27,395 bases of DNA from an uncultured Bacilli bacterium (GTDB lineage Bacteria; Bacillota_I; Bacilli_A; RF39; UBA660). The notes beneath the pieces are model-generated. The model saw nothing but the letters and a program-made list of their open reading frames with translations. It ran no database searches and was not told the origin of the DNA. Made by a program: the position numbers and the translations under genes. The DNA is taken from assembly GCA_947626095.1 (NCBI GenBank), contig CANQQV010000020.1:1-27395 (forward strand). The letters are read 5' to 3'. Shown one piece after another: positions 4,460 through 20,384 of the stretch (positions are counted from its first letter, which is position 1; each line of letters begins with the position of its first letter).

Positions 4460-5599
4460 TTATAATTTTAATCTTTTAATCATACTAGTATCAATGTCAG
4501 CGATTCTTTCTGGACATAATTCTATTTCTAAGTTTTTTTCGCCTTCATACATATATTTTTTAGTTTCTCTAACGATATGAATCGTTCCATCAGCAATTAA
4601 TGGTTGTAACATCGTTTCATAAACATCTTTATTTTTCTTTTTATCATTTAAACGATTATAAAAACAAGTATAATCGATAACAGTTTTACTACCATTCATC
4701 GAAAGAAGATATTCAACTGTTTGATAATCAACAGCACCCCATTCTCGAGCTGATAAGCCATGTAAATAATGCATCATATATTCTTTTTCTAATTCTGTTT
4801 TAACAGCTATTAACATATATTCTAAAAATTTAGTAAGTTCGTGATAACCTTTAGCTTCTTTAATTAATTTATCATAATGAGGTGCAAAGTTAATAGCACG
4901 GTTAAAGATAATATATGGATAGATATGTCGATTAAGTAAATACCACATAGCAACCGTTCGGCTAGTTCTTCCATTTATATCAAAGTATGGATGAATATAA
5001 ACAAAGTAGAAATGCATTATTTGAGATTTAATAAAATACTCAGTTTCATTGTTAAATCTTTCACCATTATTAACATATTCAAAGAATGAATCCATAAATT
5101 TAGGAACTTCTTCAAATGGTAAACCTTCATCAATAGTATCATCTAAACGACCATTTTGTAAGATATAAACTGGAGCTTCACGATACTTTTCACCCATTCT
5201 TCTGCGATCTTCAAAGCTTAATAATTTGTCACTTAAGATTTTATAAAGTTCAGCAACTGTTTCACTGTTGATACTCTTACCTTTTAAAATATATTGGTAA
5301 CCATGGTATAAATTAATGATACGGTGTGTTAATTCACTATTAGATGTTCTTTTAGCATCTTCGATAACTTGTTCTATTGTCGCTAACGAATCATTAATAC
5401 CTTCAACATTATTATTAGCTTTTAATTCGTGATTAAACATTACTTTTCGTGAAAAGCTTCGCGTATTCATAAATTCTTGTTGTTCTAAGAATTCTTCTAG
5501 TTCTCTAACTAAACTATCTAAATATTCACGATTGTATTTAAACAATCTCCCTGAAGCTGATTTTAAAGGTAGTGTTCCTTCTTTAAGATTAAGTTGCAT
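4460..5599 (-). CDS. Fic-domain protein
   Basis: Variant Fic motif HPYFDINGRTSR and N-terminal NNNVEG resembling the (S/T)xxxE(G/N) inhibitory motif. Start moved to ATG 5599 behind AGGGGTGA. Confidence 0.9.
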   Translation of the reverse strand: MQLNLKEGTLPLKSASGRLFKYNREYLDSLVRELEEFLEQQEFMNTRSFSRKVMFNHELKANNNVEGINDSLATIEQVIEDAKRTSNSELTHRIINLYHGYQYILKGKSINSETVAELYKILSDKLLSFEDRRRMGEKYREAPVYILQNGRLDDTIDEGLPFEEVPKFMDSFFEYVNNGERFNNETEYFIKSQIMHFYFVYIHPYFDINGRTSRTVAMWYLLNRHIYPYIIFNRAINFAPHYDKLIKEAKGYHELTKFLEYMLIAVKTELEKEYMMHYLHGLSAREWGAVDYQTVEYLLSMNGSKTVIDYTCFYNRLNDKKKNKDVYETMLQPLIADGTIHIVRETKKYMYEGEKNLEIELCPERIADIDTSMIKRLKL

Positions 5600-5637
5600 A
5601 TAATTCACCCCTAATTAATAGGTCATATTATATACAT

Positions 5638-5666
5638 AAAAAAAGAAATATTCAAATATTTCTTTT
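5638..5666 (-). terminator. AT-rich terminator hairpin after the paralog pair
   Basis: AAAAGAAATATT-(2 nt)-AATATTTCTTTT followed by extra T on the minus strand. Confidence 0.55.
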
Positions 5667-5670
5667 CGAT

Positions 5671-6279
5671 TTAGATATTTCCTTCTTCTATATAATTGTC
5701 ATTTTCTTTGAGATTAGCACATTTATTAACTATACTACAACTACCAACTAATTCTTTAGCGGCGATGGAGATGTTTCTACCACGACGATTACTTTGTTCT
5801 TTTAATCTATCTTCACCTGATCTAATCATGGTAATAACTCCACCTTTTTCATAATCATAAGCGATTTTCATATATTCATCATAATCAATCAATACTACTC
5901 CAGTATTATCAACTGCATCATAATAATTAAAATAAGGGCTTAAAGTTTTGTTATAAAGCATAAACTTTGTATCTTTACTAAAATATTCATAAAAATGAGT
6001 TAAGACAATATTTAAATCAATCCAATTTTCATCAAGATAATTAGTTTTCCAATAATCACCTGATGATATAAAATCGTATATCTCATCTAAAGTATATGGC
6101 GATTCTTTTAAATCCTCTTGGTTTTGATAATTATTGTTAGAATTTGCTTTTTCATTATTAGCCAAAACATTTACAGCAATTGATGAAACAATACTGAATG
6201 ATATCCCTAATAATAAAACTATTAATAAAGAAATAACTGCTTTTTTCATCGTTAATCTACTATTTTTTAACTTGTTCAT
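5671..6279 (-). CDS. Exported/membrane-anchored hypothetical protein, paralog 3 of 3
   Basis: N-terminal hydrophobic helix. Shared motifs YTLDEIYDFISSG, HFYEYFSKDTKFM, DYDEYMKI and Cx5C. Start overlaps the upstream stop (TAATG). Confidence 0.8.
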   Translation of the reverse strand: MNKLKNSRLTMKKAVISLLIVLLLGISFSIVSSIAVNVLANNEKANSNNNYQNQEDLKESPYTLDEIYDFISSGDYWKTNYLDENWIDLNIVLTHFYEYFSKDTKFMLYNKTLSPYFNYYDAVDNTGVVLIDYDEYMKIAYDYEKGGVITMIRSGEDRLKEQSNRRGRNISIAAKELVGSCSIVNKCANLKENDNYIEEGNI

Positions 6280-6902
6280 TAAACATTTTCTTCTTTCTCA
6301 TAATCTACATTTTCTTCGGGATTAGCACACCTATTAATTTCATTACACGCTCCTAAAACATCATGGGCAGCATTATTAACTTCATGTTCTCGATACTTCG
6401 GTAAAGGATATTGTGATACTTCTGTAAGATAAATACCGGTAGCGGCATCCCCTTTACCTTTCGTAATTTTCATGTATTCATCATAATCTATCATTATGGT
6501 ATGAATATCACTAGGATCAACATTTTCATATTCACCAAAGATATATCTCATTCTTTTATCATAAATCATAAACTTTGTATCTTTAGTAAAATAGTCATAA
6601 AAATTAATTATCACGTTATTATAGTCATACCATTCACGGCAATTTTCTGTAAAATAAGAAACTTTAAAATAAGTACCTGAAGATATAAAATCATATATCT
6701 CATCTAAAGTATAAGGCGATTTTTTAAGTTCTTCTGTTTCAATTTTATTTGGTTTAAGTTCTTCTTTATCATTTTCGGCAAAAACATTTATAACTAATGA
6801 TGAACCAAGACTAATTGATATTCCTAATAATAAGACAACAAATAATGAGACAACTACTTCTTTCATCTTTAATCTACTACTCTTTATCTTTTTCTTTATC
6901 AT
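6279..6902 (-). CDS. Exported/membrane-anchored hypothetical protein, paralog 2 of 3
   Basis: Same motif set as 5671-6279 and 8065-8571. Strong RBS AGAAAGGAG. Confidence 0.8.
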   Translation of the reverse strand: MIKKKIKSSRLKMKEVVVSLFVVLLLGISISLGSSLVINVFAENDKEELKPNKIETEELKKSPYTLDEIYDFISSGTYFKVSYFTENCREWYDYNNVIINFYDYFTKDTKFMIYDKRMRYIFGEYENVDPSDIHTIMIDYDEYMKITKGKGDAATGIYLTEVSQYPLPKYREHEVNNAAHDVLGACNEINRCANPEENVDYEKEENV

Positions 6903-6924
6903 ATTCTACTCCTTTCTTAAACCA

Positions 6925-7000
6925 AATATATTATTTAATATTTAAGTTAGCAACCTAGTTTAACTAGAGTTTTAGATTAATTAAATTCCAGTTTAACTAG
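6925..7000 (-). promoter_or_regulatory. Promoter with two palindromic operator boxes
   Basis: -35 TTGCTA (6948-6953), 17 bp, -10 TATATT (6925-6930). Boxes CTAGTTTAACTAG (6955-6967) and CCAGTTTAACTAG (6988-7000). Confidence 0.7.
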
Positions 7001-7005
7001 AATAA

Positions 7006-8037
7006 TTATTTTAACAAATTATATTCGTTAAAAAAGCTTTCTATAAGTTCTTTATTATTATTACATTTACCGATTAAACAAGATACTTTTTCGTTTTGAT
7101 AAGTAAAACCTTCTACTACAACACTATGGTATTCTACTTCATAATGCAAAATATCTTTATCTATTTGATAAACAGCGTTATATTTCATTTCATTTTCTTC
7201 TAAAGTATAAGAATATATCTTGTCAACGACGTTATATGCTAAAGTTAAATTATCTTTATTCTTAACATATGTATTATTATCACTTCTTACATATCCATTA
7301 TTATTAAGTAAAGTAATTATTCTATCAGAAACCATATTAGTTTTTAGTTTATTATTATTTATATAATATAATTTGTTATTAGAACTTTTTTCTTTAACTA
7401 TTAAATTAATATTATCTATTACTTCGCCATTTTCACTATAATGTTCTATTTCTAAATATAATTTATCTAAGTTATTTAAAATATCTTTGTTAAAGTATTC
7501 TAAATTATTTAAATTTTCTTCTATTTTGATCGATTTATAATTATTCTTAGTGGCAATAATATATTTCTTACTGCCATTTAAATAATATAGTGTAACTTTA
7601 TAATCATGATCTCCTTCTATATCATTTAAACTGAAAATTAATTCATTATTATCTATCATTAAATAGCTATCATTTATTACATATTTTTTATTGTCTAAAC
7701 TTATTGTATAAAATTTAAATTTATTATAATTATTTATAAAGTATGTAAGTAAGAATGCTATTAATAAAGTTAAGATTATCATTAAAATATAAAACATTAT
7801 TTTAATTATTTTATTATAATCTTTTTGTTTTTTATCAACTATTAAATTGATTAAATCAATATCTAAGTATTTAGATATATCTTTTATATAAGTTAAGTCA
7901 GGATAGTTTTTACCTGTTTCCCAATTAGAGATAGCTTTATCAGAAACCATTAATAGTTTAGCTAGTTCTTGTTGGGTTAGTTTTTTCTTCTTACGAGCAG
8001 CAGCAATTAGTTTACCAATATCTTCTTTTTCTTTCAT
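7006..8037 (-). CDS. Membrane-anchored XRE-family HTH regulator with a large C-terminal extracytoplasmic domain
   Basis: LTQQELAKLLMVSDKAISNWETGKNYPD (HTH_3), one TM helix (IMFYILMIILTLLIAFLLTYFI), ~240-aa C-terminal domain. Confidence 0.9.
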   Translation of the reverse strand: MKEKEDIGKLIAAARKKKKLTQQELAKLLMVSDKAISNWETGKNYPDLTYIKDISKYLDIDLINLIVDKKQKDYNKIIKIMFYILMIILTLLIAFLLTYFINNYNKFKFYTISLDNKKYVINDSYLMIDNNELIFSLNDIEGDHDYKVTLYYLNGSKKYIIATKNNYKSIKIEENLNNLEYFNKDILNNLDKLYLEIEHYSENGEVIDNINLIVKEKSSNNKLYYINNNKLKTNMVSDRIITLLNNNGYVRSDNNTYVKNKDNLTLAYNVVDKIYSYTLEENEMKYNAVYQIDKDILHYEVEYHSVVVEGFTYQNEKVSCLIGKCNNNKELIESFFNEYNLLK

Positions 8038-8064
8038 CAAAACCATTCCTTCAATAATCGTTTA

Positions 8065-8571
8065 TTATATACATTTATTTATGACATCGCAACTACTCAA
8101 AACTTCTCTAGCTGCTATATCAATCATTAATCCCTTATACTCTTCGCGCTTTTTATCATTTAACCAATTTTCACCAACTTTAATATCATAATTAGCACTA
8201 CTTTTATCACTTGTAATAATCTTCATATATTCATCATAAGTAATCATAACCGTTCCAATATTTTCTAATTCTTCATCATTTTCAAATGGCTTTATTGATT
8301 TGTTATAAATCATAAACTTTGTATCTTTATTAAAGTAATCATAAAAATGGGTTAAAACATAATTAAATTCTATCCACTCTTCACTATAAGTATCATCACT
8401 TTTATAGTAAGCTCCTGTCGAAATAAGTTCATATATTTCATCTAAATTATGTGATGTTTCTTTAAGCTCTTTTTTATTGTTAGTTTTAGCTTGACTAGTA
8501 TTAAAACATAATAGAACTAAACCTAAAAGTAATACAATACTTATTGATATTATAACTATCTTTTTCTTCAT
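8065..8571 (-). CDS. Secreted hypothetical protein, paralog 1 of 3
   Basis: Signal peptide ending SQA. Motifs LDEIYELISTG, HFYDYFNKDTKFM, TYDEYMKI and CDVINKC. RBS AAGAGGTG before ATG 8571. Confidence 0.8.
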   Translation of the reverse strand: MKKKIVIISISIVLLLGLVLLCFNTSQAKTNNKKELKETSHNLDEIYELISTGAYYKSDDTYSEEWIEFNYVLTHFYDYFNKDTKFMIYNKSIKPFENDEELENIGTVMITYDEYMKIITSDKSSANYDIKVGENWLNDKKREEYKGLMIDIAAREVLSSCDVINKCI

Positions 8572-8592
8572 AATTTGCACCTCTTAAAAATT

Positions 8593-8667
8593 ACTTTAAA
8601 TTTAAAACTTAAAACGAGCAACCTATTTTAACTAGAATAAATAAAAAAAGAACTCTAGTTTGACTAG
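8593..8667 (-). promoter_or_regulatory. Promoter with two palindromic operator boxes
   Basis: -35 TTGCTC (8616-8621), 17 bp, -10 TAAAGT (8593-8598). Boxes CTATTTTAACTAG (8623-8635) and CTAGTTTGACTAG (8655-8667). Confidence 0.7.
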
Positions 8668-8672
8668 AATTC
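8643..8672 (-). terminator. Intrinsic terminator of polA-CDF-mutM
   Basis: GAATTCTAG-TCAAA-CTAGAGTTC then T7, immediately after the mutM stop. Confidence 0.75.
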
Positions 8673-9491
8673 CTATTTTTGACAATTTTCACAGTAATAA
8701 GTACTACGACCACCAACAACGATTCTTTTAATTGTAGTACCACAATTTTTACAGGTTTCCCCTTCTCTTTTATGAACCATTAAGTTTTGTTGAAAACGAC
8801 CTGTAACACCAAGTGATGAAGTATAACTGCGAATAGTTGTACCACCACATTTAATGGCTTCTTCAATTATGGCTTTAGATGAGGTAACGATTTTAGCACA
8901 TTCATCCATTGTAATATCAATACCTAATTTTTCGGGATAAATACCTGAGGCGAATAACACTTCATCAGCATAAATATTACCTAGACCAGATATAATTGTT
9001 TGATCAAGTAATAAACTTTTCATTGGTAATTTCTTTTTATGAAATTTTTCATATAAGTACTCTTTAGTTAGTTTAGGATCAATTGGTTCTATACCTTGTT
9101 TATGAACTCCCTCAACTGTTTCTAAGTTTTCTTTTAAGACTAAGTTCATACGACCAAATTTTCTTGTATCATGATATCTTAAATCAGTACCATCTTCAAA
9201 TTCAAAGATAACATGTTCATGTTTATTTATTTCTTCGTTATGGTCTTTAATAAAGTATTTTCCTTCCATACGTAAATGACTACATAAATAGTATGGACCA
9301 ATATCAAAGATTAACCATTTGCCTCTTCTTAAGATATCACTAAATTCTAAACCAATTAAATTATTTTTAAATTCGTTTAAATCAGATTCAATTATACGAT
9401 CATATAAGACATTAACGTTTTTTATTTTTTTTCTTAGAATTCTTTTTCGTAACGTTTGTCTTACTGTTTCGACTTCGGCTATTTCTGGCAT
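8673..9491 (-). CDS. mutM: Formamidopyrimidine-DNA glycosylase/AP lyase
   Basis: MPEIAEVE N-terminus, RRGKWL, HLRMEG, DTRKFG, GLGNIYADE (H2TH), C-terminal CxxC...GRSTYYCxxCQ zinc finger. Confidence 0.97.
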   Translation of the reverse strand: MPEIAEVETVRQTLRKRILRKKIKNVNVLYDRIIESDLNEFKNNLIGLEFSDILRRGKWLIFDIGPYYLCSHLRMEGKYFIKDHNEEINKHEHVIFEFEDGTDLRYHDTRKFGRMNLVLKENLETVEGVHKQGIEPIDPKLTKEYLYEKFHKKKLPMKSLLLDQTIISGLGNIYADEVLFASGIYPEKLGIDITMDECAKIVTSSKAIIEEAIKCGGTTIRSYTSSLGVTGRFQQNLMVHKREGETCKNCGTTIKRIVVGGRSTYYCENCQK

Positions 9492-10317
9492 CGGCTTTTT
9501 TACTCCTTACTTTGGCTTTTCTTATAACAGTCTTTTTAACTAAGTTAACTCTTACCATATCACTTATTTTTAGTAAGTAATCTTGAATACTTAAGACTAA
9601 GGTATTAACATCAATCATGCTAACACCTTCTTTTAAAATAATATTTAGGTGCGCATAATTAAGACCACCATAAGAATTTATTTCTAATTTTTCCACACTT
9701 TTTATTTCTTTATTTTTTTCGATTTCCGTAATATAAGTATTAAGATTTAGATTATTTTTTTCTTCAAGATATTTAAAACTATTAACAATGACTTTAATTC
9801 CTTTATAGATAACAAATAAAGAAATAATAATCATACCTAGAATATCACCATATTTGAAGATTTTTACCCATTTACTTAGTTTAGTTAAGATTAAGGCACC
9901 AAGCGTAATACCATAAGTGACAAAGTCAATAGTACTATGTACCTTACCTATTAGTAATAAACCTTCTCTTTTTTGATAACTCATATTAGTATTAAAACAT
10001 GAAGTAATATATCTAGTTATAGCAATTAAGAAAACAAATAAGATAATAAACCAACTAGTAGTTTTAATATCACTTGTTACACCATAATAGATTAAGAATA
10101 AACTTGATAAGATAATGATAATACCAATAATAGAACTAATTATACCTTTATATTTTTTATTTTCACTTTTCTTATAAAGAAATAAACTGATAAGGATAAC
10201 AGATATTTCTAATAACATGCTGGATAACATAGTTAGGGAATGACATAATATACCCCCAACTAATTTGATTAGCATTAAGATTAAATCAACAATTATTATT
10301 TTTTTAACATCTTTCAT
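9412..10317 (-). CDS. Divergent cation diffusion facilitator (FieF-like) transporter
   Basis: Six TM segments, IKLVGG in TM1, HSTID in TM5, DILGMIIISLFVIYKG in TM6, C-terminal dimerisation-type domain. Overlaps mutM by 80 nt. Confidence 0.7.
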   Translation of the reverse strand: MKDVKKIIIVDLILMLIKLVGGILCHSLTMLSSMLLEISVILISLFLYKKSENKKYKGIISSIIGIIIILSSLFLIYYGVTSDIKTTSWFIILFVFLIAITRYITSCFNTNMSYQKREGLLLIGKVHSTIDFVTYGITLGALILTKLSKWVKIFKYGDILGMIIISLFVIYKGIKVIVNSFKYLEEKNNLNLNTYITEIEKNKEIKSVEKLEINSYGGLNYAHLNIILKEGVSMIDVNTLVLSIQDYLLKISDMVRVNLVKKTVIRKAKVRSKKADARNSRSRNSKTNVTKKNSKKKNKKR

Positions 10318-14594: not shown

Positions 14595-17500
14595 TTAAAA
14601 TAAACTTAACTGATTACTTTCAGATAGATTATCTAAACAACCTAAGGCTTTTAGTTTTTCCATAGAACTAGTATTTACTTTACCTCTATCTCTTAAATCT
14701 TCCATAGAGATAAATGGTCCCCCTTCTCTGGCTTTAACAATGGCATCTGCGACGTTATCACCAAGGCCATCTAAGGCTCTAAATGGAATTATTAAACCTT
14801 TTTCATCTTCAGTGATGACAAATTTTTTACCATCACTTTTATCAACATCGATGTTTTTAAAGTAGAAACCTCTTAAGCACATTTCTAAGCAGATACATAA
14901 TGTTTCTCTAGTATCTATTTCTTTGTTACTAGCACTATTACCTTTGGCATCAATTTCATCGATTTTATTTCTAATGGCATCAGCACCTTTAATCATTGAT
15001 TCAATATCAAATTGATCACGTCTTATAGAAAGATAAGCACAGTAATACCATAATGGATGATGAACTTTAAACCAAGCGATTCTAAAGGCCGAGGTTACGT
15101 AAGCTGTTGCATGGGCTTTAGGGAACATGTATTTAATTTTACGACATGATTCGATATACCATTCAGGTATGTTAGCTTCACGCATAGCTGCAGCATGTTC
15201 AGCCCAAGTAGTTGGATCTTTAGAAGCTTTACCTTTACGTACGAATTCCATTATTTTAAAGGCTTTAGCTGGTTTCATTCCCCATGCAATTAAGTTAACC
15301 ATAATATCGTCACGACAACCGATGACGTTTTTAAATGGAACTTCGATAATACCTTCAGCATTAGGTGTACATAAATCACGAGCGTTACCTAACCATACGT
15401 CAGTACCATGAGATAAACCAGATATTTTTATCAGTTCGGCAAATGTTGTCGGTTTAGTTTCTTCAAGCATTCCTAGTAAGAATGAAGTACCAAACTCAGG
15501 AACACCTAAGGTACCAGTTGGACAATATTTACGACCATCTTTATCAACTAAACCTCTTAATTGGTATCTGTCAACGCCAAGAATTTCAGGGCCAGTAAAG
15601 ATTTTCATTGTATCTAAGTCACCTAAATCAATTTTAGTAACATCAATACCAGATATATCTTGAAGCATTCTTAATACGGTTGGATCATCGTGACCTAGTA
15701 TATCTAGTTTTAATAGGTCGGCATCAATAGCATGGTAATCAAAGTGAGTTGTACGCCATGCACTATTTGGATCATCAGCAGGATATTGGAAAGGCGTAAA
15801 ATCCCATACATCTTTATAACCAGGAACAACAACGATACCACCTGGATGTTGGCCAGTTGTTCTTTTAACACCGGTACAACCAACACTTATACGTTCTACT
15901 TCTGGTGTTCTAACAAAGGATTTGATAATACCCTTTTTCTTTAATTCATCTTTACTAGTAATTGGCATATTATAACTATCAGCTTCTATTTTTAAAGTAT
16001 TATATAAACTTTCTTCAAAGAAACCTTGAACATAACCATAAGCTGTCTTATCAGCAACAGTGCCAATTGTTCCAGCACGATAAACGTTATCAGTACCAAA
16101 TAGAACTTTAGTATATTCATGAGCTGAGGCTTGGTTATCACCAGAGAAGTTTAAGTCGATATCTGGTACTTTATCAGCATTAAATCCTAGGAATGTAGCA
16201 AATGGCATGTCATTACCTTCATGGATCATATCAGCGCCACATTCAGGACATTTTTTAGCTGGTAAGTCAAAACCTGATGGATAATCATCAACATAAGCTT
16301 TACCATTTTCATCTTTAAATTCAGAATGACAACACTTTGGACAGTAGTAATGAGCTGGAAGCCCATTACATTCAGTAATACCCATCATACTAGCAACGAA
16401 TGAGGAACCAACTGAACCACGGGAACCAACTAAGTACCCATCATCATTTGAGTGTTTAACTAATTTTTGCGCGATTAAGTAAATAACGTCGAAACCACCA
16501 CCGATGATACCACCTAAGGAAGCTTTAGCATTTTCGGTAGCTTCTTCATCAGTTAATTCAGTTTCAGCTTCTCTTTTTAATTTATCACTCATTAATTTAA
16601 CGACCCCATCGTATCCACTCATAATAACATTATGAACTTCAGATGAGAAAATATTATCTTTTTCTTCATCACTCATCTCTGGGTGCTCTAAAGCAATCTT
16701 TTCCGTTACTAAGCCCATTATTTTATCACCATAAAATTCTTGGGCGATACGTTCTTCAATGTTTCTTGGCAATGGATCACCATACATACTATGAGCTTTT
16801 GCAAAAACCATATCACGACATGTTTCTTGAGAATGTTCAATAATTGGAGAATATGGTTTATCAGGATATACGACTACTTCAATTTCTTCTAACATATCAA
16901 TTATTTTATTAGGATTAGTAATAACAATTTCTTTAATAAGGGCAGGATCATCTAAGAAAGCAAATTCATCTAACATTTCTTTAGTAGTTCTAAAGTATTG
17001 ATTAGGTATATGACCACTTAAAGCTGTTTCAGAATCATTATAATTATATTTTAAATCGTATACTTCATCTTTTTCTTTAATAATACCAGCTACCATTAAT
17101 TTTCTTAAAGCAGCTGAAACAGCTTTTAATTTTTCTGTTTCACTATCACGACCTTTGAAGGCATCTTCTTCAGGAATATTTTTAGAAGGAGAATAGATAG
17201 CGGCAAGATTAAGAGCAGTAATAGGAATTTTATTAATTTTCTTTAAGATATAAATGTATTTTAATACTTTTTCTTCTACTGAATTTAGTTCAACGCCTTG
17301 TTCACGACATTTGGTAATCGCATTTTTTAGATTATCATCATTATTATTTCGTTTAGCACTACCAGATAAGTAACGAGCTAAAGGATGTCTTCCTTTACCA
17401 GGAACATTTTGGTTAACAATTATTTCACGATATAAACGATCTTCTTTATTAATGTTATGAACATCACCAGTAGCCACAATTAATTTACCAGCTTCTTTAG

Positions 17501-20375
17501 CACATTTAATTATTTTCTTAAGACACTTATGTAAGTGTTCCATATTGTTGATATCATGACCTCTTAGTAAGTGAGTATAATTCTCAGGTGGTTGAACTTC
17601 GATGTAATCATAGAATTGCATAGCGGCAATTAAGTCTTCTTCACTTCTTGTTTCAGCGAGATAAAATATTTCACCATTTAAGCAGGCACTACCAAGTAGT
17701 AAACCTTCCCTATTTTCTTCGATTAGTTTACGTGGTATACGGGCATTTCGTTGTAAGAAGTTAGTATTAGCATAACTAACAATTTTAAATAAGTTTTTAA
17801 GACCTACTTTATTCTTGGCTATAAAGGTAATATGTTTAATATTATCATACATATTAGCAATATGTTCAGTATAGGTTTTACCAGGAATATTTTCATACAT
17901 TTGTACCCAATCTTCATGACACCATGGGAATTTCCAACGATATTCTTTGTTACCATATTTTTCAAAAGGATAACCTAAGTTTTCATCAACTTTTTCATCT
18001 TCTTCTGGTTTAAAGACATAGTTTTTTAAGGTTGATAAATCACCTATATGTTCTAATAATTTTGGATTGTTTTTAAAAGCTATTTCTTCTAGTAAACCAA
18101 GATTATTTAAATCATTTAAAGTTTTAACTCCTTTAATTTGACTTAACATTTTATTAAAGATATAAGCAGTATTTTCGGAGTCGACATCGGCGCCATGGTG
18201 TTGACCAACATAAACAACAATGGTTAAACTCTTTTCGCCAAAGTCATCGGTATATTTTATCTCAATATCATTTTCTGCAGGATGTAATTTTATATGTGGT
18301 TCAAAGTCGACTAAGTTAACGTTGGGAGCAACTTCAACTTCGATATTTATTTCATCGGTTTTGGCAGCTTTATGTAAGGTCTCTAAGTGATAGATATTAC
18401 GATATTTTTTTACTCTTTCTTCCGTTGTAACATCGATATCATAATATTCTTGTTTTTCGATTTTTAAAATATCTTCACCATCAACTAAGATTTTGGTAAA
18501 CGAAGCACCAATTTCTGGATCAATAATTGAACCACTGATACCTGTTTCATTAACCGTTTCATCATCTTCGTCATCAGACTCACCAGTATCAATACCATAG
18601 TATTTACCTAAAGCTTTTAAACTATGTTTTTTTAAGTCACGATTAATTACTCTTGATAGCATTAAGGTATCAATGATAGGATTTTCTAACTTACCTAAAT
18701 CATATTTATAGTAAGCCATGTCAATCATGTTTTTATCGAATCTAGCATTATGAGCTACTAAAGGAAGATTACCTATCCACTCTTTAAAGCGTTTAACAAC
18801 GTTTTCTTCATTATCAGCATCTTTAACATCATCATCGGAGATATCAGTAACTCTAGTTATTTGTTCATCAATGTGGTGGCCGGGATTAATAAGTTCGTCG
18901 AAACGATCAACTACTTCACCATTATGGATTTTAACACCACCAACTTCAATTAGAGAGTCACCTAAACCAGGATTAAAGCCTGTTGTTTCTGTATCGAATA
19001 CAACATAGGTATTACCTTCAACTTTTTCATCATTAGAATTAAAGCAAACGTTTAGGTATGACTCACACATTTCAAGTTCAGTGCCATAGCCGGCTTTGAA
19101 GAATTGTAAGTTCTTCTTTTCTTCTTCAGCCTGAGCAATCATTTTTTCCATTTCGGCAATGCCCTCTTCGTTGCCACTATTTTTAATTTCTTCTAAACTA
19201 GCTTTTAGTTCATCTATTTTAGCTTGGGCTTTTTTCTTTAAACCTTTATTAAAGGATGTTACTTCGCCAAAGACATGAGGAAATGACTGACAACAATCGT
19301 GATCAGTTATTGCAATACCACGATGGCCCCATTCCATGGCTTGTTTAACAAGTTTTACTTCATCGCAAACACCATCCATTTGACTCATCATAGTATGGGC
19401 ATGTAGTTCAACACGTTTTTCCTCTTCATTATCTAAACGTTTATATGATGGAATATTTTCTAATTTTTCATAACTTCTAAAATTAAAGACTAGGTCATTA
19501 GCAAAAGTATCATATCTTACTTGGCCTTTAAAAGTCCACCAAGTTCCATCTTTTAATTCTTTGGATTTAGCTAAAAAATCTTCTTCATCTTTAGCAAAGC
19601 ATTTAGCTAAAATACTAGAGGTATTATCACTTATTTTTAAAGTAATTAAATATAAATCTCGACCATCTTTGGTTTTTAATTGGTTAAATTCTGAACCAAA
19701 GATATAAGCTTCTAAATGAACATTGTTTTCTTCTTGGTCAATACTTTCAATGGAAACAATACCTTCTCTAGAATAGTTAACTTTTTTCTTTGGCGTCCAT
19801 TTACCATTACTATAGTTACTGACTGGTTCATCATAGAAATCAATTTCAATTTTTTTATTACGATCAGCTTCAATTTCATCTTGAATCTTCTTTTCATTTT
19901 CCTTATTAATGGCAGTTGTTATTTCCATTTCATAAAAACCTAGGTCAACTAAGCCATCAACTAAACCTTTAATCTCTTTTTGCAGCATATCATATTCTTC
20001 ACTTTTACTATCAAGTTCGATAATAATAAATTCATCATCAATAGAGATATTTTTATTTTCTAAAGAGACTAAAGATGGTCTTTTACTTATTAAATCACCA
20101 AGTAAAACCTTAAAAGCTTCTAAGATATCTTCATCTTGCATATCATCATAAATAAAGTTTATATGACAAGGATTTTTACCTTTAATACCTTTTTTAGCAC
20201 ATTTAGTAAGTTCTAATGTTGCAACAGGATTAATTGGTTTATCATTTTGAATAAAGACTTCAAAAGATTCTTTCTTTTTATTTAAAATAACACGGGAAAT
20301 ATTTGCAGTAGCAAAATCATCATTGACATCTTCAAAGCCAATACTATCAAAAAATTTTTTCATTTTATCTTGCAT
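14595..20375 (-). CDS. polC: DNA polymerase III PolC-type alpha subunit, unusually long (~1926 aa)
   Basis: OB domain, PHP (RVELHAHTMMSQMDG, AITDH), exonuclease (VFDTETTG, HNARFD), GSRGSVGSS, Zn finger, KVPDIDLNFSG, LLKLDILGHDDPT, KYMFPKAHA, C-terminal NQLSLF clamp-binding motif. Start ATG 20375 behind AGGTGA. Confidence 0.99.
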   Translation of the reverse strand: MQDKMKKFFDSIGFEDVNDDFATANISRVILNKKKESFEVFIQNDKPINPVATLELTKCAKKGIKGKNPCHINFIYDDMQDEDILEAFKVLLGDLISKRPSLVSLENKNISIDDEFIIIELDSKSEEYDMLQKEIKGLVDGLVDLGFYEMEITTAINKENEKKIQDEIEADRNKKIEIDFYDEPVSNYSNGKWTPKKKVNYSREGIVSIESIDQEENNVHLEAYIFGSEFNQLKTKDGRDLYLITLKISDNTSSILAKCFAKDEEDFLAKSKELKDGTWWTFKGQVRYDTFANDLVFNFRSYEKLENIPSYKRLDNEEEKRVELHAHTMMSQMDGVCDEVKLVKQAMEWGHRGIAITDHDCCQSFPHVFGEVTSFNKGLKKKAQAKIDELKASLEEIKNSGNEEGIAEMEKMIAQAEEEKKNLQFFKAGYGTELEMCESYLNVCFNSNDEKVEGNTYVVFDTETTGFNPGLGDSLIEVGGVKIHNGEVVDRFDELINPGHHIDEQITRVTDISDDDVKDADNEENVVKRFKEWIGNLPLVAHNARFDKNMIDMAYYKYDLGKLENPIIDTLMLSRVINRDLKKHSLKALGKYYGIDTGESDDEDDETVNETGISGSIIDPEIGASFTKILVDGEDILKIEKQEYYDIDVTTEERVKKYRNIYHLETLHKAAKTDEINIEVEVAPNVNLVDFEPHIKLHPAENDIEIKYTDDFGEKSLTIVVYVGQHHGADVDSENTAYIFNKMLSQIKGVKTLNDLNNLGLLEEIAFKNNPKLLEHIGDLSTLKNYVFKPEEDEKVDENLGYPFEKYGNKEYRWKFPWCHEDWVQMYENIPGKTYTEHIANMYDNIKHITFIAKNKVGLKNLFKIVSYANTNFLQRNARIPRKLIEENREGLLLGSACLNGEIFYLAETRSEEDLIAAMQFYDYIEVQPPENYTHLLRGHDINNMEHLHKCLKKIIKCAKEAGKLIVATGDVHNINKEDRLYREIIVNQNVPGKGRHPLARYLSGSAKRNNNDDNLKNAITKCREQGVELNSVEEKVLKYIYILKKINKIPITALNLAAIYSPSKNIPEEDAFKGRDSETEKLKAVSAALRKLMVAGIIKEKDEVYDLKYNYNDSETALSGHIPNQYFRTTKEMLDEFAFLDDPALIKEIVITNPNKIIDMLEEIEVVVYPDKPYSPIIEHSQETCRDMVFAKAHSMYGDPLPRNIEERIAQEFYGDKIMGLVTEKIALEHPEMSDEEKDNIFSSEVHNVIMSGYDGVVKLMSDKLKREAETELTDEEATENAKASLGGIIGGGFDVIYLIAQKLVKHSNDDGYLVGSRGSVGSSFVASMMGITECNGLPAHYYCPKCCHSEFKDENGKAYVDDYPSGFDLPAKKCPECGADMIHEGNDMPFATFLGFNADKVPDIDLNFSGDNQASAHEYTKVLFGTDNVYRAGTIGTVADKTAYGYVQGFFEESLYNTLKIEADSYNMPITSKDELKKKGIIKSFVRTPEVERISVGCTGVKRTTGQHPGGIVVVPGYKDVWDFTPFQYPADDPNSAWRTTHFDYHAIDADLLKLDILGHDDPTVLRMLQDISGIDVTKIDLGDLDTMKIFTGPEILGVDRYQLRGLVDKDGRKYCPTGTLGVPEFGTSFLLGMLEETKPTTFAELIKISGLSHGTDVWLGNARDLCTPNAEGIIEVPFKNVIGCRDDIMVNLIAWGMKPAKAFKIMEFVRKGKASKDPTTWAEHAAAMREANIPEWYIESCRKIKYMFPKAHATAYVTSAFRIAWFKVHHPLWYYCAYLSIRRDQFDIESMIKGADAIRNKIDEIDAKGNSASNKEIDTRETLCICLEMCLRGFYFKNIDVDKSDGKKFVITEDEKGLIIPFRALDGLGDNVADAIVKAREGGPFISMEDLRDRGKVNTSSMEKLKALGCLDNLSESNQLSLF

Positions 20376-20384
20376 ATACTTCAC

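Follow-up and report, generated by a model that had tools for sequence, protein, structure and literature searches.

The 27,395-nt contig CANQQV010000020.1 of an uncultured Bacilli bacterium (assembly GCA_947626095.1), the whole of which is referred to here as the window, carries a cassette in which the gene for a predicted membrane-anchored XRE-type transcription regulator, REG, lies among three genes for related small exported proteins, paralogs A, B and C. We consider it probable that the cassette is a self-contained transmembrane regulator that controls the neighbouring small exoproteins, and usually itself, and that the small proteins modulate the outer domain of REG. The first-pass annotation of this DNA had proposed one-component control of the small family. 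Linkage and conserved palindromes now stand behind that proposal, and each suggested check that was carried out either favoured it or was neutral, whereas DNA binding, the direction of control and the contact between the proteins are what we infer. The host is represented by a 1.6-Mb, 91%-complete metagenome-assembled genome (MAG) of an uncultured animal-gut Bacilli lineage, and related DNA is found in rabbit-gut and other gut metagenomes.

The three small open reading frames (ORFs) and the regulator gene of the earlier annotation were all confirmed on the minus strand, which also carries the flanking fpg and Fic genes. The order of transcription is fpg, paralog C, REG, paralog B, paralog A, a hairpin with a T-run and the Fic gene. 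Paralog C (8065-8571, 168 amino acids, the "upstream type") encodes an N-terminal membrane helix and an outer domain and starts at ATG 8571 behind the ribosome-binding site (RBS) AAGAGGTG at 8578-8585; the ORF list also holds an alternative GTG start upstream, at 8580. REG was listed at 7006-8046, but its true start is likely ATG 8037, giving 343 amino acids, because the RBS GAAGGA touches this first ATG and the homologs are 343 residues long and begin with MKEKE. The gap between paralog C and REG is 18 nt. Paralogs B (6279-6902, 207 amino acids, RBS at 6909-6918) and A (5671-6279, 202 amino acids) are of the "downstream type", and the start of A overlaps the stop of B by one common base (TAATG). 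The sequencing runs listed for this DNA are animal-gut DNA assemblies, with no RNA run among them; one 985-nt contig from these assemblies spans the A/B junction, and the other contigs found there are fragments and strain variants. A hairpin with a T-run at 5638-5662 on the same strand (fold -8.5 kcal/mol, z -3.19) is likely the end of the cassette transcript; it was missed by a consensus terminator scan because it has too few G-C pairs.

The two transcription units have equivalent promoters, as had been claimed. Upstream of both C and B there are two boxes 32-33 bp apart, a -35 element TTGCT(C/A), a 17-nt spacer and a -10 element. For P_C, the promoter of paralog C, the predicted distal operator is AATTCTAG-N5-CTAGAGTT at 8651-8671, which scores 24.3 bits with a position weight matrix (PWM) and is the second-best site of the genome. 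The predicted proximal operator, ATTCTAG-N5-aTAGG at 8622-8638 (19.9 bits), abuts the -35 of the predicted core promoter at 8593-8621, which has the -35 TTGCTC at 8616-8621 and the -10 TAAAGT at 8593-8598. For P_B, the promoter of paralog B, the predicted distal operator is TATTCTAG-N5-CTgGAATT at 6984-7004 (21.4 bits, no T-run after it), and the predicted proximal operator ACTCTAG-N5-CTAGG at 6954-6970 (23.0 bits) likewise abuts the -35 of a predicted core promoter at 6925-6953 (TTGCTA and TATATT; 9/12 matches). All of these elements are on the minus strand.

The palindromes had been noticed as companions of the small family, and they proved to be conserved at the small-gene promoters of seven species and at one distant metagenome locus, L072. 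When the upstream regions of small genes were aligned on the -35 hexamer (n=15), all 15 showed a common architecture: a distal box AATTCTAG-N5-CTAGAATT, about 12 variable bases that often include a T-run, and a proximal box with the consensus ATTCT(A/C)G-N5-CTAGG, fused to the TTG of a -35 of the type TTG(C/T/A)T(A/C). Downstream follow a 17-nt spacer and a -10 of the type TAnAnT, and the RBS lies about 50 nt from the -35. Of the 14 non-redundant promoters used for scoring, all have the proximal box fused to the -35, with the junction (T/G)TG, and 13 match the distal palindrome ATTCTAG-N5-CTAGAAT at 12 or more of its 14 specified positions; the remaining one, G005b_s1, carries a related but shorter inverted repeat. 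The start-to-start spacing of the two boxes is 31-33 bp, or about three helical turns, and by arithmetic from the alignment the proximal box is centred near -43, about 8 bp before the -35 hexamer begins. In L072 the distal palindrome is retained, and a degenerate proximal half-site stands before TTGCTT.

The letters of the half-sites are conserved and the 5-nt centre is variable, a pattern more in keeping with recognition by a protein than with a hairpin alone. The distal box of P_C is also the stem-loop of a terminator-like hairpin behind fpg (8648-8674, 12 pairs and a T-run), for which the RNA fold has -13.9 kcal/mol and a z of -5.05. The distal box of P_B gives only a weak hairpin (-6.8 kcal/mol) without a T-run. 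Thus, the conserved feature is the sequence of the half-sites, and use as a terminator is occasional.

In a PWM scan of the whole genome, the five strongest cassette boxes, from the window and from a second cassette on contig C3, rank first with 19.9-24.4 bits, and the sixth scores 15.6. Every other match of 15 bits or more lies inside an ORF, and the best other intergenic match has 14.1 bits. A looser search for tandem boxes gave 19 pairs versus 6-11 in simulated genomes; the pairs outside the cassettes resemble background, and only the three cassette promoters continue into GGTTG. Within the 91%-complete MAG, the boxes are confined to the cassettes.

The same boxes bear on the earlier suggestion that the regulator is autoregulated. 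This is plausible where REG trails a small gene, as it does across the 18-nt gap in the window, but it is not universal. REG comes first at the loci L057 and L072, where it is preceded by a promoter of its own that lacks boxes, and the boxes lie between REG and the small gene; at a third such locus, L058, the upstream region of REG is cut by the contig start. In L057, the 5' leader of REG (4700-4760, minus strand) has some nine tandem repeats of a short unit of A and T only, which lie between an extended -10 (TGtGCTATAAT) and the RBS and form a possible length-variable tract. In the window, the last codons of paralog C, shortly ahead of REG, hold a promoter-like site, TTGCGA-17-TATAAT (8064-8092, minus strand, 10/12 matches). 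Its letters are identical in the genomes G010 and G005. It is a weak candidate because it lies in conserved coding sequence and because the scan as a whole found no more sites than in shuffled sequences. It could provide basal REG expression independent of the boxed promoter.

Linkage was surveyed in 61 related genomes by profile search and in 27 genomes of the genus. The small family has 18 significant genes in seven species of one uncultured Bacilli genus (G000, which is the genome of the window, G004, G005, G009, G010, G013 and G017); an eighth genome of the genus set has a 48-residue partial match only. REG with this outer domain is encoded by 12 genes in the same seven genomes; one is truncated at a contig end, and the other 11 score 248 bits or more. 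A small gene adjoins REG on the same contig in 11 of the 12 cases. The twelfth REG gene, in G009 (L062, C15:72-1040), starts 71 nt from a contig start, and the small gene of that genome (L063, C3:10-582) runs into the start of another contig. The two are probably one cassette split by assembly, because their flanks match the two sides of the C3 locus of the window's own genome, where a fourth, divergent small gene lies directly upstream of the second REG. A metagenome scan with the REG profile yielded one full-length distant homolog (35% identity) at L072, with two small-family genes directly downstream (127 and 144 amino acids; E 1e-8 and 3e-10). Co-occurrence with the regulator gene, a check suggested with the first-pass annotation, is therefore complete wherever the contigs allow, with the reservation that the seven species are close kin and the counts are not independent events. 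A REG-like gene on G009:C17 (154 bits) has another recognition helix, other exported neighbours and no small-family neighbour, and it was set aside as a different subfamily.

The pairing is constant while the gene order varies. The order is small-REG-small at the fpg site of G000, G010 and G005, and REG-small in G013:C11 (L057), G004:C51 and L072. In G000, G005, G009 and G017, one or two small genes precede REG behind an MgsA/RarA-type AAA+ ATPase gene, whose identity was checked with Pfam in G000, while in the other three it was recognised from the conserved C-terminal coding sequence; G004:C28 and G013:C18 have the same order, but another gene lies upstream. A small gene that precedes REG is separated from it by 13-20 nt or overlaps it by 4 nt. 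Tandem small genes occur in the window (A and B) and as pairs in L059, L060 and L072.

REG consists of a helix-turn-helix (HTH, about residues 10-65), a membrane helix (about 80-104) and an outer domain of about 240 residues (about 108-346), in line with the parts first assigned to it. The HTH matches HTH_3 with an E value of 2.1e-14. In the predicted structure (predicted local distance difference test, pLDDT, 85.2), the HTH (1-60) is followed by a long helix (65-106) and a beta-rich C-terminal region made up of an all-beta part (111-222) and an alpha/beta part (231-343). There is a single hydrophobic segment, with the hydrophobic window starting at residue 77, and the Lys/Arg-rich residues before the helix suggest an N-in topology. 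The chain ends in C-x4-C near the C terminus. REG thus has a recognised DNA-binding domain and at least one transmembrane segment in the same chain, by which transmembrane transcription regulators are recognised. The closest structural matches of the HTH are C.BclI, C.AhdI and P22 c2, and it also resembles ClgR; matches to the HTH filled the results of fold searches with the whole model. A homolog search gave 92 proteins; about sixty of them, the best-scoring ones, can be aligned along most of REG, the others over the HTH only.

No DNA-binding protein other than REG accompanies the boxes, and REG is the protein predicted to bind them. The recognition-helix residues D36, K37, S40, W42, E43, T44, G45, K46 and N47 are invariant in 19 aligned REG homologs. 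The second REG of this genome, on C3, is 38% identical to the one in the window (contig C20) by BLASTP and 37% in a MAFFT alignment, and both carry the recognition-helix motif SDKAISNWETGKN, at which the 16 other aligned XRE-type transmembrane proteins differ. The common recognition helix agrees with the half-site that both cassettes have, and cross-talk between the two is predicted from it.

Paralogs A, B and C are 48-49% identical to each other, and every motif that had been listed as common to them is among the 52 invariant columns of 212. A profile built from the three, as the first-pass annotation had suggested, recovers the window genes with E values of 3e-80 to 3e-109 and brings out a small unannotated family. 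In an exhaustive search of 1.84 billion representative proteins there were 53 matches at E<=1e-3, 40 at E<=1e-10 and 4 at E<=1e-30, and a word-based search of 5.8 billion clusters gave 11 members with the query counted. The description of the family as unrecognised holds. Among 54 aligned members there is no Pfam family common to more than one and none above cutoff; PHROGs and PADLOC gave no match, PDB sequences gave none at E up to 1, and NCBIfam gave one sub-threshold match only (16 bits against a cutoff of 850). The conserved core reads KESPYTL(D/E)E(I/L)Y, HFY(D/E)YF.K.T.F and Y.(D/E)EY and is preceded by a Lys-rich N-terminal stretch and a hydrophobic helix, the latter in all 54 aligned members. 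The A-A...C-x5-C motif at the C terminus of the window paralogs is limited to one subclade.

The model of paralog C (pLDDT 88.3) shows a helix (3-27) and then a mainly helical domain, with ten helices and two four-residue strands in all. Structure prediction and fold search had also been proposed as a check, and no characterised fold or family matches the small protein; the ESM Atlas has no usable match for it or for REG. Paralogs A and B have possible signal-peptidase sites (VLA/NN and VFA/EN) and variable tails, whereas most family members have no obvious A-x-A cleavage site and look like anchored proteins. The small proteins would be bitopic or secreted proteins of 130-210 amino acids with an outer domain. 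They are not copies of the REG outer domain, since hhalign of the two families aligns the membrane helices only. In a tree of 26 small proteins, the "upstream type", comprising paralog C and the upstream genes of G010 and G005, is grouped with support 98/98, and the "downstream type", A-like and B-like, is separate from it. These separate conserved clades suggest distinct roles. Paralog B is 89% identical to P0009 of another assembly, which lies on one 37-kb contig with the A-like P0004 and the REG protein P0013; the duplication that gave A and B thus predates this strain.

The neighbourhood polA, Cation_efflux, fpg, cassette, Fic, MIF-like is kept in G000, G010 and G005, and in G013 with extra genes. 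Protein identity and the ratio of nonsynonymous to synonymous substitution rates (dN/dS) were compared between G000 and both G010 and G005. For fpg the identity is 94-95% and dN/dS is 0.06-0.07, and for Fic the values are 88-93% and 0.05-0.10. REG as a whole is 79-81% identical with a dN/dS of 0.17-0.25, made up of 0.06-0.17 in the HTH and 0.21-0.29 in the outer domain, and the small genes are 48-71% identical with a dN/dS of 0.26-0.58. Between species, fpg, Fic and a gene of 373 amino acids are 87-95% identical and Cation_efflux is 82-83% identical; these four best-conserved flanking genes have a dN/dS of 0.05-0.15, and the small MIF-like and 94-amino acid neighbours have 0.21-0.27. At the same site in G013, REG is 40% and the small gene 32% identical to the window pair, against 84% for fpg. 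No gene-wide dN/dS above 1 was found among the compared genes. The small family had been called diversifying, and since its dN/dS is raised yet below 1, this word holds in the sense of fast-evolving and not in the sense of demonstrated positive selection.

In the mechanism that we propose, a REG dimer would bind the palindrome ATTCTAG-N5-CTAGAAT from the membrane, with its HTH in the cytoplasm, and would activate the small-gene promoters through the proximal site at the -35. We lean towards activation over repression as the most likely sign of control, because the centre of the proximal site is near -43, and it is from this position that RNA polymerase is contacted by lambda cI and class II activators. 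For cI, activation goes with a site centred near -42. The tandem predicted operators lie at about -43 and -75, and none lies over the -10 or the start. Induction of the paralog C promoter would also raise REG, a positive feedback that follows if paralog C and REG form one transcription unit as their spacing indicates, and B and A would be additional copies behind a second boxed promoter. The only REG targets in the genome would be the small-family genes. As no other output of the circuit can be detected, the function at the cell surface must fall to the small proteins. They would sit beside the outer domain of REG on the same face of the membrane and could modulate it as a co-sensor, a stabiliser or an inhibitor, a role modelled on ToxS, TcpH and VtrC with their regulators. 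Feedback on the outer domain is favoured because of the tight coupling of the genes, the conserved positional subtypes and the joint divergence of the two proteins. A complex prediction of the REG outer domain (108-346) with paralog C (28-168), run with no controls, gave scores of 0.01 and 0.00 against a mark of 0.32 and speaks neither for nor against contact.

Several observations weigh against this reading. The core promoters look usable alone, with 4-5 of 6 matches in the -35 and a 17-nt spacer, and many XRE proteins are repressors, so that repression by occlusion of the -35 is a live alternative. The distal boxes before C-type genes double as good terminator hairpins. The PWM was built from 28 sites, 6 of which come from this same genome, and targets may be missing from a MAG that is 91% complete. 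A regulon limited to the cassette would leave a pure co-sensor without any output, which argues that the small proteins are (also) effectors. The apparent pairing of cysteines comes from few independent lineages: four of the five Cys-bearing REG loci have a neighbour with a Cys pair, and among the six REG genes without one, five of which have a small gene on the same contig, one neighbour has the pair.

If REG alone sensed an external cue and induced stand-alone surface effectors that never touch it, for example protective, immunity-like or binding proteins, the adjacency of the genes would reflect a compact regulon only. This agrees with the limitation of the boxes to small-gene promoters, with the REG-first loci in which a constitutive REG promoter is followed by boxed small genes, and with the extra tandem copies of small genes. 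Other XRE-type transmembrane genes of the genome also precede exported proteins of unrelated families. However, the small gene mostly precedes REG and is tightly coupled to it, and the upstream and downstream types form separate conserved clades, as if their roles differed. At one chromosomal site, moreover, the small proteins diverge jointly with the outer domain of REG, although none of these points is proof of contact. We regard effectors that never touch REG as an unlikely explanation, but one to be taken seriously beside modulation of REG by the small proteins.

Quite improbable, in our view, is a signal-receptor circuit of the pherotype kind, in which the small proteins, or a variable C-terminal fragment cut from them, would be exported self-signals read by the REG outer domain in a strain-specific communication or kin-recognition circuit with positive feedback. 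A signal gene that adjoins its receptor-regulator gene under an operator-bearing, autoregulated promoter is the layout of PlcR/PapR, both partners diverge fast inside a conserved neighbourhood, and A and B have the possible cleavage sites and variable tails mentioned above. Against this, the conserved part is a confidently folded domain of 120 residues (pLDDT 88) rather than a short pro-peptide, most members lack an obvious A-x-A site and look anchored, and the C-terminal Cys motif and tail are limited to one subclade. RRNPP pairs such as PlcR/PapR are also built differently, with cytoplasmic tetratricopeptide repeat (TPR) receptors that read re-imported short peptides, whereas REG is membrane-anchored with a beta-rich outer domain and its neighbour is a folded protein of 130-210 amino acids. 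REG was rejected as an RRNPP receptor on the absence of any TPR family match and on the membrane helix and beta-rich region that follow its HTH.

A related idea, which we hold to be just as doubtful, is self-recognition at the level of contact. REG would read a surface-anchored ligand, the small paralogs of its own or of a neighbouring cell, with strain-specific "types" that are co-diversified and with the Cys pairs of the subclade (C-x4-C and C-x5-C) forming a shared metal or redox site. If true, such a circuit would be a protein-ligand counterpart of peptide pherotypes, without a kinase, import or a phosphorelay.

It is very improbable that the palindromes are simply intrinsic terminators or the sites of another factor and that the XRE-type protein is, for example, RodZ-like and morphogenetic, since the proximal boxes and the distal boxes of the P_B type have no T-run, the half-site sequence itself is conserved, the proximal box is at a fixed distance to the -35 in all 14 promoters, at least 17 such XRE membrane proteins occur in the genome, and RodZ identity was rejected for REG on an HTH_25 match of E 0.062 (13.6 bits against a cutoff of 24.6) versus 2e-14 for HTH_3 and on the lack of DUF4115.

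Modulation of a regulator by a small neighbour, as proposed for REG, has precedents in ToxR/ToxS, TcpP/TcpH and VtrA/VtrC, where a bitopic regulator with an outer sensor domain is likewise encoded beside a small N-anchored partner; fast evolution, gut hosts and cysteines in the outer domain are further likenesses (PMC9214523, PMC7265457, PMC8359183). In the literature, ToxR/ToxS and VtrA/VtrC appear as co-component cassettes that evolve fast in enteric Gammaproteobacteria and pair a winged-helix regulator with a lipocalin-like partner (PMC9214523). When the cassette is held against that description, an adjacent bitopic regulator and N-anchored partner are found for 11 of the 12 REG genes plus L072. 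In place of an OmpR/ToxR-type winged helix, REG matches XRE-type HTH families only, HTH_3 among them, and its structural matches are XRE proteins; in place of an eight-stranded lipocalin-like barrel, the model of paralog C is mainly helical. The partner gene is also usually upstream, is present in up to three copies and itself carries the operators, and the host is a Gram-positive-type Bacilli lineage. Homology between the systems is not detectable. The cassette would work like a co-component regulator but fails the superfamily's defining features.

Among membrane-bound XRE proteins, BcrR of Enterococcus faecalis binds inverted repeats upstream of its target promoter, which it activates, and has several membrane helices and no large outer domain. 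Like REG, it is a membrane-anchored XRE-type one-component regulator from Bacillota. A BcrR-type identity was rejected for REG on its single hydrophobic segment and on the 240 residues of its C-terminal domain. BcrR is included as a bacitracin sensor among the transmembrane transcription regulators surveyed in PMC10269533, where its partner is entered as "Na". The output of BcrR is an ABC transporter and not small exoproteins. Table 1 of that survey lists no partner for any of the Gram-positive examples BcrR, BreG, AguR, LP_2991, HcrR and MmsR (PMC10269533). In literature searches, the supplementary lists of that survey aside, we came across no Bacillota example of an XRE-type transmembrane regulator that has a small partner of its own. 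Lambda cI at P_RM and the C proteins of restriction-modification systems resemble the cassette in the HTH, as shown by the matches to C.BclI, C.AhdI and P22 c2, and in the arrangement of two dimer sites, predicted ones in the cassette, upstream of or overlapping the -35. Unlike REG, they are soluble, with operators that are less widely spaced, and the DNA here contains neither phage nor restriction-modification genes.

At least 17 proteins that combine an XRE HTH with membrane helices are encoded in the window's own genome, far more than the average of about five transmembrane transcription regulators per bacterial genome (PMC10269533). Examples are C1:72651-73769, C1:94201-95397, C22:15838-16545, C13:32216-32926 and C3:122003-122761. 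Several of these genes have, downstream on the same strand, signal-peptide or N-anchored proteins of other families. A membrane XRE regulator with an exported neighbour may be a general design in the genus.

On the upstream side of the cassette, fpg (8673-9491, minus strand) has Fapy_DNA_glyco, H2TH and zf-FPG domains. Its start is overlapped by 80 nt (9412-9491) by the Cation_efflux gene (9412-10317), which encodes 301 amino acids and whose Lys/Arg/Ser-rich C-terminal tail forms the overlap; this is also present in G010 and G005. On the other side, the Fic-domain gene (4460-5608, minus strand) matches SoFic (PADLOC model, E 1.1e-22) and adjoins the cassette in four species. It has its own promoter-like site behind the hairpin that ends paralog A, looks separately transcribed, and was excluded from the cassette as a conserved backbone gene. 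Farther away, a PolC-like ORF of 1929 amino acids (14595-20384, minus strand) contains an RNase_T exonuclease and Pol III alpha domains, with PHP in two stretches. At 15-17 kb the G+C content rises to 0.35-0.36, from about 0.27, and an insertion in the PolC-like gene is possible.

Membrane-anchored transcription factors with a small partner have so far been understood almost solely from the ToxR-type systems of Gammaproteobacteria. The cassette would follow the same logic with parts that are unrelated to theirs, since it combines an XRE HTH with a new family of helical partners and with an outer domain that is unassigned. Because operator, promoter, regulator and targets lie within 3 kb and the sites occur nowhere else in the genome, the system is directly testable in a heterologous host, and the cassette could be used as a membrane sensor-promoter pair of the orthogonal kind. 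A protein family without annotation or recognisable fold thereby gains its first functional context, in an uncultured gut lineage of small genome size in which such regulators have expanded to 17 copies or more.

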